A stretch of DNA of 64,000 bases from Minisyncoccota bacterium (GCA_041663145.1 JBAZRG010000001.1:10467-74466), one strand, 5' to 3'; counted from the first letter of the stretch, positions 54,729 to 58,661 are shown. Notes: generated by a model not told the origin, from the sequence alone. Translations and numbers: made by a program.

Positions 54729-57700
54729 ATGGCTACTTCTAAAAAATCTTACATTATTTCTTTATTCATATGTTCGATTTTAGTTTCCGTCTTCGCTTAC
54801 ACAATATCGACAAATGCGGTAAATGCTCAAACCTTTGAATATGGATTCAAGTGTTATAACACTTCCACGGGACAGTATGGAACCTTAGAAGGTCCGCCAG
54901 GATTTCAGACTTGTACAGGACCATATTATGGTGGTTCTACGGGTTCTGGTGATGATGAATCAGTTAGTATTCTAGGAGACGGATCATGTCCATCTATTAA
55001 ACTTCATCCCATTCCTGGGATATGGTTCGATATATTAAGTGCGCATTATAATTTAGGTTGTGTAAACGGAACTCCGCGTCAATTTTATGGTACCGTTGGA
55101 GATATTATAGAACTTCCTAACGGTAAGCAAATAACTGTGTCCGAAAAAGGCTTCGATTTTAAATGTGCGATCGGATTAAAGAATGATAACGGTTGTCCTA
55201 CTAGATTGTTAAGACCTGGTTATAAAGTAACTATTTCAACAGTCGGCTCTGGAATTGTCTCGGGTTGTGATGGTATCTGTACGGTCTTACAGGTTAAAAA
55301 AGGAAGTGTTATCACTTTGAAAGCCGAACCCAAGCCTGGCAGTAAGTTCAAGCAGTGGAGCGGAGGATGTTCTGGTACTATAGATGTTTGCGAGCGTACG
55401 ATAAATGCTGATACGAATATTTCAGCCGTTTTTGCGTCTACTAGTGATATTGTTCTTGCAAATGTAAATCCCACAGCTTCGGCACCGGGGAAAATAATTA
55501 CGGTCAAGGGTACCGGTTTTAATGCCAAGGGTAACTCTGTTCGCGTTACGAATGCTAAGAATTCGGCCAATTTTGTAGTTATACCAAATGTATCCTCCAC
55601 TAATGATACTTTGACCGTGGAATTGCCTACATCTTTATCAAAAATGAACAGTGGTGATTTTGTCGTAGATGTAAAAAATACTGATAGTGATTGGAGCAAT
55701 CAACTCTCACTAAAACTCACCATCACAAAAATCATTGCAGTTGTACTTATGAACTCAGGTAAGATCGGTACTCCCGGCTCAAATCCAACTCTGGAATATT
55801 TGCAAAGCATTTCCGAAGGTTCGACTATCATCCCATATCGTTTCCAAGCTCCAGCCAAGATCACTGCGACTGTTCGCAAGGTTGTCGATCAGGAATTGCG
55901 GGCTAAAAATAAAGTCATATTGATCGGACATTCTGTCGGAGCGTTTTTGATCTACAATATGCGTGGTGAATATGATAAAAACGGAGGAAATGTCCAATTC
56001 ATGTACTTTGATCCGCCAGTCAAATTTATAGGAGGAAAAGCCTGTTTCAATGTCTTTGGTGGGCTTTTCGCGGCGGCTCATAAGGCGATATGTGATGGAG
56101 TTGCAGATGATCCAAATACTAAAAACTGGACGTATGGACAGGCTATTGGTTTTGCTTTCAAGACTTTCAAATTCCATAATCCTTTTGACTATCCAAATGT
56201 CAGACAAGCGGCGCCAAACGGTAAGACAAACGCTGAAAATCTGGCGGATCTTACGGAAGATATCGAAAATCGATTGATTGCGGATTGTACAGATAATTGT
56301 TCTTTTGAGGTAACTCCTCTCTCCAGTGTTTTAAAAACTCCACCAAAGAATATCAAGGTGATCAATGAAGCAAGTGCGACCATATCAACTATTCGACCAG
56401 GAGATACAGTCATCATATCCGGCACAGGTTTTAATTCCGGCGGAAATCATGTCACTATAGAAAATAAAGCCGATCCATTCATCTATTATGATCAATACGA
56501 TCTCATTCCAGATGCAAACGGTCATCTCAATTTCACACTTCCCGAAGGTCCTGATATACAAGATGAAGATAATCCGGTTAGTACGGTTCCGGGTGCATAT
56601 ACTCTGAAAGTAAGCGCACTCGATAGTGACTGGAGTTCTAGTATTACAGTGAATATATCGACATCAGGTAAACTCAAGGCTGAGATGTCGAAGTCCGGTA
56701 AGGTCAAATTGACATGGGATGATACAGCCAGCAATGAGACGGGATTCCAGATCGAACGCGCTCTCGACAAAGATGGAAAGAGTTTCAAACTGATCGCTAC
56801 AAATCCGGCAAACAATACGACATATGTAGATGATCTCAATTCAACTGCTCTCACATCAACTATTGAGACATATCGAGTCAGGGCAGTATTGCCTAGCAGA
56901 AAATATTCCGAGTATACGAATACTGCATCTGTTTCGAATTGTCTCAGTGTGGCAGGTGAGGGTCAGATAAAAGTTGTGTTTATGAGAGGATCGAGCTGGA
57001 ATCCGAAAATCCAAGATGCCATGAATCAGGTGAACTATATTATAGACAATGGTTTTGGTGAAATCGAACCATTCAAAAAATATTTCGATAGTTTTTCTTT
57101 CTATCTAGATTTGAAGACGGTCAAAGAATCATCTTACAGCAAAGTCACAACAGCTTCAAAAAAGAAAGCCTTTTCTCCTTCAGCATTGGTATCGATGAAG
57201 TCGGCCAGCAGTTGCGGTGATGGGGACCAATACACTCTATATGTCAATTCTTCTGAATATATTGGAGGCACCAGTCAATTTAGTTCCAATTTCAGTCTTC
57301 TCAATTTGGCAGTCTCCAACAGTCCTGCTGTGGCACTCCACCAATTTGCTCGTGCTTTGGCGGGATTGCAGGATGAATATGTTTCTTCGGAGACAGTTGG
57401 ATCATTGAAGAATTGCAGTATGTATCCTAAGAAAGATTATAAGGGTGATGACAATATTATCTACGGCAGTATCAACACTCCAGGGTGTGCAAAATCGGAT
57501 TATTGGCGACCAAGTTATGATAGTCTGATGAATGAAAATGAGCTCAATTCCGATCCACGAATGAATGTCATTTCGTGTGGTTATATGATCGCTGCACTCC
57601 GAGGTGAACCTACTACGAAGTCAAATGCTCAAAAATATTGGCCGGAATGTTATAGCATGGCAGGAACAGGCGACATCATCATGGATGGTATGCTAAATCC

Positions 57701-58661
57701 AGCACCTGCTCCAGTTATTGAACCAACCATAGATGTCGAAGTGACCTATAGGGATTCTGAAAATAATAGTAAAAATCTATTCTCATCTCTCAAAGCGCTG
57801 TTCCAGAATGAAAATATGCTGTCGGCTGTTGCAGACTCCATCACCAAGCCGTCTTATGTCTTCTCCGCTCGTCCTGGCGATAAAGTAACTTTAAGAGGTG
57901 TAGGATTTAGTAATATAGAGAATTCAGTACAATTGACCAATCTTATTACTCTGGATGAATATCTATTAGAAGATATACCGAGCTATGCTGGTGGCACTAG
58001 ATTGGCATTTATAATACCAAAGACAACACCGCTCGGTTCGTATAATATGAAGGTCGGTGCTTTCAATAGTCACTGGTCAAAGAATATTCCGATAAATATA
58101 AGTAGTACCGTCAGCCGTATTCCAGTGCCTGTAAAACCAGTTGTCGCACCGTCATCTATTCAGAGACTCACGCCATCTCCGTACATTAAAATAACACAAC
58201 CGAACGTCACTCCTCGTATCACACCGACCCCGCTTGCCGCCACACCAAGAGTCACTGTTACGCCCACCGCTACGCCAAAAGTCACTGTTACACCCACTGT
58301 TACGCCAAGGGTTACTGTTACACCTACCGCCACACCTAGGGTTACTGCTACACCAGCTACTACGCCACTTTCCGCCACACCAAGAGTCACTCCAAATATT
58401 TCAGTTTCACCATCACCATCACCGACAGTTACACCAAATAACATGATCTCAGTCTCGCCTTCACCATCACCGACAGCGTCATTTTTGCCTTCGCCTTCGC
58501 CATCTCCATCGCCTTCACCCTCGCCATCACCATCTCCCTTACCTGCATATTACTCTTCGCCCTCACCAGCAGTCACACCGAATAACGTGACATCAGTTTC
58601 GAAAGGCAGAATCTTAACCGGCAACATATTCGATGTGTTGAAGACATTATTTGGGTATTAG
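54729..58661 (+). CDS. giant secreted multi-domain surface protein (IPT/TIG-like and Fn3-like repeats, GHSxG hydrolase-like module, degenerate M64 peptidase-like module, PT/SP low-complexity tail)
   Basis: Signal peptide; ILIGHSVGAF; three xPGDxVxIxGTGFN...V IPT-like modules; KLTWDDTASNETGFQIERA (Fn3-like); HQFARALAGLQDEY versus the M64 HEFGHxxGLxDEY; (TPxVTVTP)n and (SP)n tails. Confidence 0.7.
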   Translation: MATSKKSYIISLFICSILVSVFAYTISTNAVNAQTFEYGFKCYNTSTGQYGTLEGPPGFQTCTGPYYGGSTGSGDDESVSILGDGSCPSIKLHPIPGIWFDILSAHYNLGCVNGTPRQFYGTVGDIIELPNGKQITVSEKGFDFKCAIGLKNDNGCPTRLLRPGYKVTISTVGSGIVSGCDGICTVLQVKKGSVITLKAEPKPGSKFKQWSGGCSGTIDVCERTINADTNISAVFASTSDIVLANVNPTASAPGKIITVKGTGFNAKGNSVRVTNAKNSANFVVIPNVSSTNDTLTVELPTSLSKMNSGDFVVDVKNTDSDWSNQLSLKLTITKIIAVVLMNSGKIGTPGSNPTLEYLQSISEGSTIIPYRFQAPAKITATVRKVVDQELRAKNKVILIGHSVGAFLIYNMRGEYDKNGGNVQFMYFDPPVKFIGGKACFNVFGGLFAAAHKAICDGVADDPNTKNWTYGQAIGFAFKTFKFHNPFDYPNVRQAAPNGKTNAENLADLTEDIENRLIADCTDNCSFEVTPLSSVLKTPPKNIKVINEASATISTIRPGDTVIISGTGFNSGGNHVTIENKADPFIYYDQYDLIPDANGHLNFTLPEGPDIQDEDNPVSTVPGAYTLKVSALDSDWSSSITVNISTSGKLKAEMSKSGKVKLTWDDTASNETGFQIERALDKDGKSFKLIATNPANNTTYVDDLNSTALTSTIETYRVRAVLPSRKYSEYTNTASVSNCLSVAGEGQIKVVFMRGSSWNPKIQDAMNQVNYIIDNGFGEIEPFKKYFDSFSFYLDLKTVKESSYSKVTTASKKKAFSPSALVSMKSASSCGDGDQYTLYVNSSEYIGGTSQFSSNFSLLNLAVSNSPAVALHQFARALAGLQDEYVSSETVGSLKNCSMYPKKDYKGDDNIIYGSINTPGCAKSDYWRPSYDSLMNENELNSDPRMNVISCGYMIAALRGEPTTKSNAQKYWPECYSMAGTGDIIMDGMLNPAPAPVIEPTIDVEVTYRDSENNSKNLFSSLKALFQNENMLSAVADSITKPSYVFSARPGDKVTLRGVGFSNIENSVQLTNLITLDEYLLEDIPSYAGGTRLAFIIPKTTPLGSYNMKVGAFNSHWSKNIPINISSTVSRIPVPVKPVVAPSSIQRLTPSPYIKITQPNVTPRITPTPLAATPRVTVTPTATPKVTVTPTVTPRVTVTPTATPRVTATPATTPLSATPRVTPNISVSPSPSPTVTPNNMISVSPSPSPTASFLPSPSPSPSPSPSPSPSPLPAYYSSPSPAVTPNNVTSVSKGRILTGNIFDVLKTLFGY
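58243..58395 (+). repeat. in-frame 24-nt tandem repeats encoding (TPRVTVTPTA)n; followed at ~58490-58545 by an (SP)n-coding microsatellite
   Basis: cacaccaagagtcactgttacgcc-type units repeated about 6 times with synonymous drift. Confidence 0.7.

Follow-up and report, generated by a model that had tools for sequence, protein, structure and literature searches.

The gene described here lies at positions 54729-58661 on the plus strand of a stretch of 64,000 nucleotides (nt) from a Minisyncoccota bacterium (GCA_041663145.1, JBAZRG010000001.1:10467-74466); this whole 64-kb stretch is referred to as the window. Its product, a protein of 1310 amino acids (aa), carries a metzincin domain related to the M64/igalysin peptidases, in which the glutamate and the second histidine of the zinc-binding motif are replaced by glutamine and arginine. 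With moderate confidence, the protein is read as an exported surface protein that combines an igalysin pseudo-peptidase with a working hydrolase, a stalk and a C-terminal tether. Nucleotide coordinates are positions in the window, residues are numbered along the 1310-aa protein, and all features of the gene lie on the plus strand.

Identification of an igalysin-like metzincin domain

The metzincin domain spans aa 738-1000 (56940-57728). With the single sequence, the match to Peptidase_M64 (PF09471) stayed below threshold (aa 822-889, E 0.003, 17.1 bits vs. a cutoff of 26), and two homologues scored 26.0 bits, equal to the threshold (P0003), and 19.5 bits (P0004). Using a profile of 36 homologous M64-like domains, the window domain included (A3), the relationship became significant: 3p1v (E 5.6e-7), 4df9 (1.2e-5) and the IgA protease of Thomasclavelia ramosa (4e-5) were matched in PDB, and the A3 hidden Markov model (HMM) lays the family motif HExxHxxxGLxDEY onto HEFGHSFGGLADEY of 3p1v. 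The AlphaFold (AF2) model of aa 733-1003, built on A3, reached a predicted local distance difference test score (pLDDT) of 92.4 and a predicted template modelling score (pTM) of 0.89, and it shows the five-stranded sheet and the backing, active-site and C-terminal helices of the metzincin catalytic-domain fold. When this model was searched with Foldseek, the best 17 PDB matches were all M64/igalysin structures (BF3526, BACOVA_00663 and T. ramosa IgAse), with E values from 6e-10 to 1.5e-7 and template modelling (TM) scores normalised to the query of 0.53-0.66; ADAM/adamalysin metzincins came next, at E about 1e-3. The domain belongs to a large group, found mostly in Patescibacteria, that is sister to the M64/igalysin peptidases. 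An earlier reading of the DNA made from its sequence alone (the sequence-only reading) had already aligned the motif with the M64 zinc site. The profile search, the model, the Foldseek matches and the position-by-position motif alignment all bear this out, and an absence of significant hits, which that reading had named as the outcome that would speak against it, was not what was found once homologues were used.

The motif itself, HQFARALAGLQDEY (H871-Q872-F-A-R875-A-L-A-G879-L-Q-D882-E883-Y884; 57339-57380), was placed by alignment to homologues and to 3p1v and falls in helix 134-146 of the model. As given for igalysin in the 2025 structure paper on IgAse, the site is H539-E540-xx-H543-xxx-G547-xx-D550; its two His and its Asp are ligands of the catalytic zinc, and the Glu is the catalytic base. 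E551 is a ligand of a structural zinc, Y552 is the 'tyrosine switch' and a Met-turn is present (PMC12237041). Window residues H871, Q872, R875, G879, D882, E883, Y884 and M934 were aligned one-to-one with this site (PMC12237041). Of these, H871 (the first zinc His), G879 (the hinge Gly), Asp882 (the third zinc ligand), Glu883, Tyr884 ('Tyr-switch') and Met934 are kept, and the DEY triplet (D882-E883-Y884) and the Met-turn methionine stand in columns that are 94-100% conserved in the family.

Among the residues of the structural-zinc site, E883 and C950, the latter in the C-terminal helix, are present and C974 is conserved, while the Met-turn is preceded by Ser/Asp and not by Cys. The domain has six conserved Cys, which may instead form disulfides; together with the signal-peptide-like first 33 residues of the protein, these cysteines fit an extracellular location.

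Degeneration of the zinc site

Where HExxHxxxGxxD is expected, the window protein reads H-Q-x-x-R-x-x-x-G-x-x-D. HExxH is kept in about 95% of roughly 110 homologous domains, and the longer HExxH...DEY signature is found in about 50 of 54 representative proteins and in 53 of 60 domains in loci of metagenome-assembled genomes (MAGs). In the 35 other A3 members, the second motif position is E in 100% and the fifth is H in 97%. Against this background, the replacements that the sequence-only reading had noticed, Glu by Gln and the second His by Arg, stand out as genuine departures of Q872 and R875 from the family. The window domain is a folded, igalysin-like one and almost certainly unable to cleave peptides: as a pseudo-peptidase, it could neither activate water nor hold a catalytic zinc properly.

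A peptidase with a non-canonical site could still be imagined, in which His871, Asp882 and another ligand would hold the metal and Glu883 or Tyr884 would be catalytic, as H871, D882, E883, Y884 and the methionine of the Met-turn are all kept. This is highly improbable, since exchange of Glu for Gln or Ala at HExxH is the standard inactivating mutation in metzincins, and the cation is repelled by an Arg placed where a metal ligand belongs. Two structures of T. ramosa IgAse, 9i4z and 9qa6, are described as 'active site mutants' of this kind, and the roles of the motif residues are those given in PMC12237041.

The degenerate stretch HQFAR is encoded by CAC CAA TTT GCT CGT, with the Gln codon CAA and the Arg codon CGT each 1 nt away from Glu GAA and His CAT. 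An error of sequencing, assembly or MAG consensus, behind which the true gene would encode HEFAH, is given very little probability. The two substitutions, 9 nt apart, fall at exactly both catalytic positions, which is unlikely for errors; they are surrounded by an uninterrupted open reading frame (ORF) of 3.9 kb, two assemblers agree, and analogous replacements occur in other family members. The identical protein was called on a Logan contig (SRR18595301_303836) that matches the window at 100% identity over 9933 nt, but contig and window probably come from one sample, so this sole second record (Logan SRR18595301, 100% identical over 9.9 kb) may not be independent and leaves the artefact some room.

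Recurrence of zinc-site loss in the family

The window protein shares its dead site with five other family members, whose motifs read R-E-x-x-R (P0118), R-F-x-x-R (P0025, which is the same as L026), R-E-x-x-K (L032), Y-G-x-x-R (L048) and R-Q-x-x-K (P0083). The second zinc His was replaced by Arg or Lys in six of six dead sites, the window included, and the first His by Arg in four of the five other dead members. The dead-site ORFs of L026, L032 and L048 have offsets of +3332, +3434 and +2831, respectively.

Since the window domain is nearer to active members (47% and 43% identity) than to the other dead ones (28-33%), its site loss was independent, and in the family the zinc site has been lost independently at least three times. 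As a basic residue recurs at this position, the side chain of Arg or Lys may stand in for the cation and steady the metal-free fold; in the window domain, the side chain of Arg875 probably occupies the metal site.

Apart from the motif, the domain is well preserved. Family-conserved positions were defined as the 54 alignment columns that are at least 80% conserved among the other 35 A3 sequences, and the window domain keeps 48 of them. The six deviations are E872Q, H875R and four conservative changes (G to A, Y to W, F to M and I to L). Members with a canonical motif deviate at 0-8 of the 54 columns, so six deviations are within their range and the domain as a whole is not decaying.

The same observations bear on another explanation, in which the M64-like domain lost its activity recently and persists as a relic that does nothing by itself, its changes are neutral or slightly deleterious, and only the hydrolase and the beta-sandwich modules matter. 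Conservation of the remainder is what would be expected just after inactivation, and E872Q and H875R are each a single-nucleotide step off the consensus codons. In addition, the degenerate motif is absent from close relatives, of which none was found, so the loss could be very young. Searches of genome and metagenome contigs with peptide patterns, and of metagenome contigs with a degenerate DNA pattern for HQFAR...G[LF]xDEY, returned no relative above 50% identity; the exact protein sequence was absent from a table of 15 billion clustered proteins, where it has no 90% cluster. Against a relic stands the recurrence of the loss in at least three lineages, always with Arg or Lys at the second His and with intact ORFs, which looks tolerated or selected and not like a step to deletion. 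Moreover, the streamlined small genomes of the candidate phyla radiation (CPR) are expected to drop useless segments of 800 nt. On balance, a relic is considered unlikely while keeping appreciable weight, and the dead domain would rather have been retained as a structural or ligand-binding module.

Alpha/beta-hydrolase-like module

A minimal alpha/beta-hydrolase-like module (aa 333-520, 55725-56288) was delimited by an alignment of 19 homologous segments (A2), sub-threshold Pfam matches, an AF2 model and Foldseek. The mean column identity of A2 is 41%, and Ser402 (GHSxG; 55932-55934), Asp428 (DPPY; 56010-56012), Trp467-Thr468-x-Gly470 and His483 (HDPF-like; 56175-56177) are invariant in it. 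Ser402, Asp428 and His483 are the candidate triad, and the order Ser, Asp, His is also intact in six further MAG genes. The serine belongs to ILIGHSVGAF (aa 397-406, 55917-55946), where the elbow pattern Sm-x-Nu-x-Sm is found as G400-H-S402-V-G404. In the AF2 model of the module (pLDDT 82.5, pTM 0.80), this serine is at position 73, between strand 66-72 and helix 74-81, and the Asp comes right after the next strand.

Pfam searches of the single sequence gave LIDHydrolase (E 4e-4) and Abhydrolase_6 around aa 380-418, both below threshold. Matches of this kind recurred near the elbow throughout A2, with Abhydrolase_6 in 19 of 19 members, LIDHydrolase in 16, PE-PPE in 15 and PGAP1, Lipase_3 and Thioesterase in 10 each; the best scores were 23.8 vs. 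27 bits for LIDHydrolase and E 6e-6 for Abhydrolase_6. The leading Foldseek matches in PDB were all alpha/beta hydrolases (type II thioesterases, PlaB, cutinase-like enzymes, monoacylglycerol lipases and YqiA), with a Foldseek probability of 0.97-1.0. The invariant Ser, Asp and His, the sub-threshold matches in all 19 members, the model and Foldseek agree with the sequence-only reading, which had recognised ILIGHSVGAF as a nucleophile elbow. No Pfam or NCBIfam family was above threshold for the module, which on its model would represent a reduced, uncatalogued branch of the alpha/beta-hydrolase superfamily and which is probably active as an esterase, lipase or thioesterase.

A Pfam match to the D12 N6-adenine methyltransferase family in seven hydrolase homologues was attributed to chance, as both contain the tetrapeptide DPPY. 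The window module also carries a 5-residue insertion at aa 339-343 (55743-55757), reading VVLMNSG where the consensus is TV-----GG.

Hydrolase and M64-like domain occur in one protein in 13 of the 19 representatives and in six of six MAG genes, with the hydrolase directly C-terminal to the M64-like domain. Carriers of the fusion include P0006, P0008, P0009, P0026, P0055, P0078 and P0086, as well as L011, L014, L017, L023, L026 and L038, and the module signature GHSxG ... DPPY ... NWTxG ... HDPF was seen almost only in M64-like fusions. The order in the window protein is unusual, with the hydrolase upstream of the M64-like domain and TIG and fibronectin type III (Fn3) modules in between. The triad is intact where the protease site is dead, namely in the window protein, P0025 and P0083.

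Domain architecture and C-terminal tail

The gene is a complete ATG-to-stop ORF of 1310 aa plus stop in the ORF listing (54729-58661), a single frame, just as the sequence-only reading had it. From the N-terminus, the protein consists of a signal peptide, a Cys-rich region, an InlB-B-repeat, a TIG module, the minimal alpha/beta-hydrolase and a second TIG module; after these come Fn3, the igalysin (M64)-like metzincin domain, a third TIG module, a Pro/Thr/Ser stalk and an amphipathic C-terminal peptide. Little of this could be recovered from the single 1310-aa sequence, for which Pfam gave two significant domains (TIG at aa 245-326 and Flg_new_2/InlB-B-repeat at aa 165-237), while NCBIfam and a direct PDB sequence search gave no match.

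The first 33 residues (54729-54827) are a probable Sec signal peptide, with a KK n-region, a hydrophobic core and VNA followed by Q, and similar N-termini are found in homologues. The Cys-rich region that follows (aa 34-164, 54828-55220) has no Pfam match and, in the searches made, no detectable homologue or family; in the exhaustive HMMER search, the best-matching stretch fell there in 0 of 150 homologues listed.

The Flg_new_2 or divergent InlB B-repeat module (aa 165-237, 55221-55439) was matched by PF18998 with 36.5-44.2 bits vs. a cutoff of 23.6. IPT/TIG module 1 (aa 245-326, 55461-55706) was likewise above the cutoff of its family (PF01833, 30.4-37.5 vs. 20.9 bits). TIG-like module 2 (aa 551-642, 56379-56654) was just below it (19.1 vs. 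20.9 bits) and resembles TIG1 (4e-6) and TIG3 (5e-10). TIG-like module 3 (aa 1044-1127, 57858-58109) has no Pfam match alone and was assigned by tblastn similarity to TIG2 (5e-10) and, weakly, to TIG1. The Fn3 module (aa 647-737, 56667-56939) ends in a conserved ...SNC junction. It was identified with a profile of 29 homologous modules (A4), which matched titin Fn3 and FN3con in PDB with E values from 3e-19 to 1.6e-8; Pfam fn3 was matched by 19 of the 29 modules and not by the window module alone. The three IPT/TIG-like modules and the Fn3-like module of the sequence-only reading were thus recovered, TIG3 by its similarity to TIG2 and Fn3 at the family level. A protein of this build may be an adhesin, as that reading had suggested.

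The low-complexity stalk (aa 1130-1290, 58116-58598), rich in Pro, Thr and Ser in the translation and without a Pfam family, contains two sets of repeats. Imperfect 30-nt tandem repeats (10 aa, about TPRVTVTPTA) in about four copies extend over 58212-58361, where Tandem Repeats Finder (TRF) gave a period of 30, 3.9 copies and 81% matches, and a (Ser-Pro)n run with mixed codons lies at 58487-58534 (TRF periods of 12, 18 and 24 nt, 79-87% matches). In a separate repeat search, the first set (family D1) again had 30-nt spacing, with copies 60-80% identical to the reference copy and differences that are partly synonymous. A 24-nt unit encoding (TPxVTVTP)n, as proposed in the sequence-only reading, was found by neither method.

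The same reading took the tail as prone to slippage and phase-variable. As a contingency locus, in which slipped-strand mispairing alters the repeat number and tunes the length of the stalk, the tail has in its favour a tandem array of 30-nt period with about four copies and the (SP)n run. The divergence of the copies and the mixed codons speak against it. Since all periods are multiples of 3, slippage would change the length in frame, and on/off switching is impossible. No variant in length was found; only one other assembly (Logan SRR18595301) contains the gene, and it is 100% identical. A contingency role is therefore quite improbable, and from their sequence the repeats look like an ordinary low-complexity linker and not a switch.

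Behind the stalk, the protein ends in an amphipathic peptide, ...RILTGNIFDVLKTLFGY (aa 1291-1310, 58599-58658), which was recognised by comparing C-termini among homologues. A C-terminus of the type xTAS[VI]W[DN]xIxxW[FL]... is present in about 30 of the 153 homologues retrieved, usually at the extreme C-terminus and right behind an S/T/P-rich linker, and in the window protein it covers the last 17-20 residues. Other examples are TTASVWDSITDWFSHLFK and STASVWDAIATWLHAGFGW. An HMM of 25 tails, the window tail among them, gave the window protein 17.7 bits and picked up additional M64-like genes in MAG loci that carry the motif. About 15-20 aa long, with a rough consensus of [ST]-A-[SN]-[VI]-[WF]-[DN]-x-[IV]-x-x-[WL]-[FL]-G-x-[FLW], it occurs on many Patescibacterial multi-domain surface proteins, with P0063, P0100, P0119, P0152, P0072 and P0043 and L039, L028, L016, L018, L005, L012 and L024 among its carriers. 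No NCBIfam model matched the peptide, and neither LPXTG nor a transmembrane helix was found in it. It may be an amphipathic helix that serves as an anchoring or sorting signal.

Family distribution and genomic context

Almost nothing was found when homologues were sought by word index, be it with the whole protein or with the hydrolase region. A search with the M64-like region retrieved two proteins (E about 1e-29) in which the motif is intact, as HEIAH...DEY and HEVGH...DEY. An exhaustive HMMER search gave 9,324 matching proteins. Three modules are recurrent: the hydrolase-like module followed by TIG (aa 336-652), the Fn3-like module (aa 643-737), with up to about 30 copies in giant proteins, and the M64-like domain followed by TIG (aa 730-1125). 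Loci with the M64-like domain are almost all in MAGs of Patescibacteria (Nomurabacteria, Taylorbacteria, Paceibacterota, Saccharibacteria and Parcubacteria), with a few in DPANN archaea. The latter include M64-like domains in MAGs labelled Pacearchaeota and Woesearchaeota (L051, L054 and L057), with 25-27% identity, and such copies could be due to transfer between ultrasmall episymbionts or to mis-binning. In a literature search, no paper linking Peptidase_M64 with Patescibacteria was found.

The window has a GC content of 41%, which, like the split transketolase near the gene, would fit a Patescibacterial origin. The neighbours of the gene are housekeeping genes, encoding BacA/UppP, a YgjP-like protein, an HI0933-like flavoprotein, RpiB, Rpe and a split transketolase, and synteny with the loci of homologues is not conserved; taken together, this gives no operon logic. 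No terminator was found between the gene and rpiB, nor any outstanding promoter signal around the gene, and the window contains no Rfam family. Elsewhere in the 64 kb, no paralogue of the M64-like or the hydrolase module was found.

Within the window, GC content is lowest at 31447-35123 (31% at 32-34 kb). CoaBC is split there into two overlapping ORFs, one for each half (Flavoprotein and DFP), and the stretch also codes for a transglutaminase-like protein and a histidine kinase of the seven-transmembrane (7TM) type. A second 7TM histidine kinase lies at 29774-31432 on the opposite strand.

Proposed role of the protein

CPR/Patescibacteria live on host cells, to which they are attached, and are unable to make a large number of building blocks. 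Their surface proteins are the likely tools of attachment and scavenging. To our knowledge, almost none of these surface proteins has been characterised. The gene product would be a Sec-exported, multi-domain protein at the cell surface of what is probably a bacterium of this group. Its M64-like domain would act as a 'binding module', and the hydrolase, acting outside the cell, would be the working enzyme. The PT/SP stalk together with the beta-sandwich modules would keep this enzyme off the envelope, to which the C-terminal amphipathic peptide would tether the protein.

Several points weigh against this reading. The inactivity of the M64-like domain is deduced from well-established metzincin chemistry, and the binding role is a prediction, as loss of zinc could also impair substrate binding. 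With no close relative found, neither purifying selection on the dead site nor the age of the loss can be demonstrated. The hydrolase model has only four to five strands, with TM-scores of 0.3-0.46 against solved alpha/beta hydrolases, and none of the 19 members of A2 has a Pfam alpha/beta-hydrolase family above the gathering score. In addition, the insertion at aa 339-343 adjoins the putative oxyanion-hole loop, and nowhere is the model less confident than there (pLDDT about 57). Finally, the anchoring role of the C-terminal peptide is a conjecture.

A broader scenario can be drawn for Patescibacteria and the few DPANN archaea, in which the igalysin-like domain, the undescribed fused minimal hydrolase and the unrecognised C-terminal anchor would form a lineage-specific surface-protein toolkit. 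In several lineages, that of the window protein among them, the protease would have become a zinc-free binding domain, plugged by Arg or Lys, that docks the esterase or lipase of an episymbiont on envelope proteins of its host. This is speculative and, as a whole, rather unlikely; if true, the docking could serve, e.g., lipid scavenging.

The main value of the window protein is as a member of an undescribed family of CPR surface proteins with recurrent, stereotyped loss of the zinc site. Among the surface proteins of Patescibacteria, the igalysin metzincin domain is widespread and habitually fused to a small, uncatalogued serine-hydrolase module, and the repeated loss of the protease site with retention of the fold provides compact natural pairs of active and dead members for the study of pseudo-metzincin function. 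For annotation, the window protein should not be called a peptidase. The C-terminal peptide, present in many relatives, could be a new envelope-targeting signal. Overall, this is a clean case of a pseudo-enzyme and not a new kind of system; pseudo-enzymes are common, and no major paradigm is changed.

Comparison with known systems

The closest known structures are those of the igalysins (IgAse, BF3526 4df9/9qdi and BACOVA_00663 3p1v), which share with the window domain a metzincin-type fold, the motif spacing HExxHxxxGxxD followed by Glu and Tyr (DEY), a Met-turn and a Cys-containing C-terminal helix. The identity is only 12-16%, and the catalytic Glu and the second zinc His of the igalysins are replaced in the window domain. 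The Met-turn of IgAse starts with a structural-zinc Cys, whereas that of the window domain does not. The contexts also differ, with Fn3, TIG and a serine hydrolase in the window protein and C-type-lectin-like, wrapping and zinc-binding domains in igalysins, as do the hosts: Patescibacteria for the window family, gut Firmicutes and Bacteroidota for known igalysins.

The hydrolase module can be compared with small alpha/beta hydrolases such as the type II thioesterases RedJ (3qmv) and TesA (6fvj), the N-domain of the Legionella phospholipase PlaB (6zth), a cutinase-like enzyme (2czq) and the esterase YqiA (4fle), with which it shares the G-x-S-x-G elbow and the residue order Ser, Asp, His. With about 190 aa, it has 10-18% identity to them. 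The invariant DPPY and NWTxG are its own and, unlike known small alpha/beta hydrolases, it is almost only found fused to an M64-like domain.

In its general build, the protein resembles Gram-positive-type surface proteins with TIG/Fn3/B-repeat arrays, since it has a signal peptide, beta-sandwich spacers and a low-complexity PT/SP stalk, but unlike these it has neither an LPXTG sortase signal nor a C-terminal transmembrane helix. E. coli PBP5 has a C-terminal amphipathic membrane anchor, and the window peptide is alike in principle.

As for the dead domain, ADAM11/22/23, with a metzincin fold, are non-proteolytic, and the carbonic anhydrase-related proteins (CARPs) are zinc-less pseudo-enzymes in which a zinc His is replaced by Arg. 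Such pseudo-enzymes keep a metalloenzyme fold on an extracellular multi-domain protein and serve as binding or receptor modules. The window protein likewise keeps the fold after loss of catalytic and zinc residues, and a binding role is predicted for its dead domain, but lineages and organisms are unrelated.

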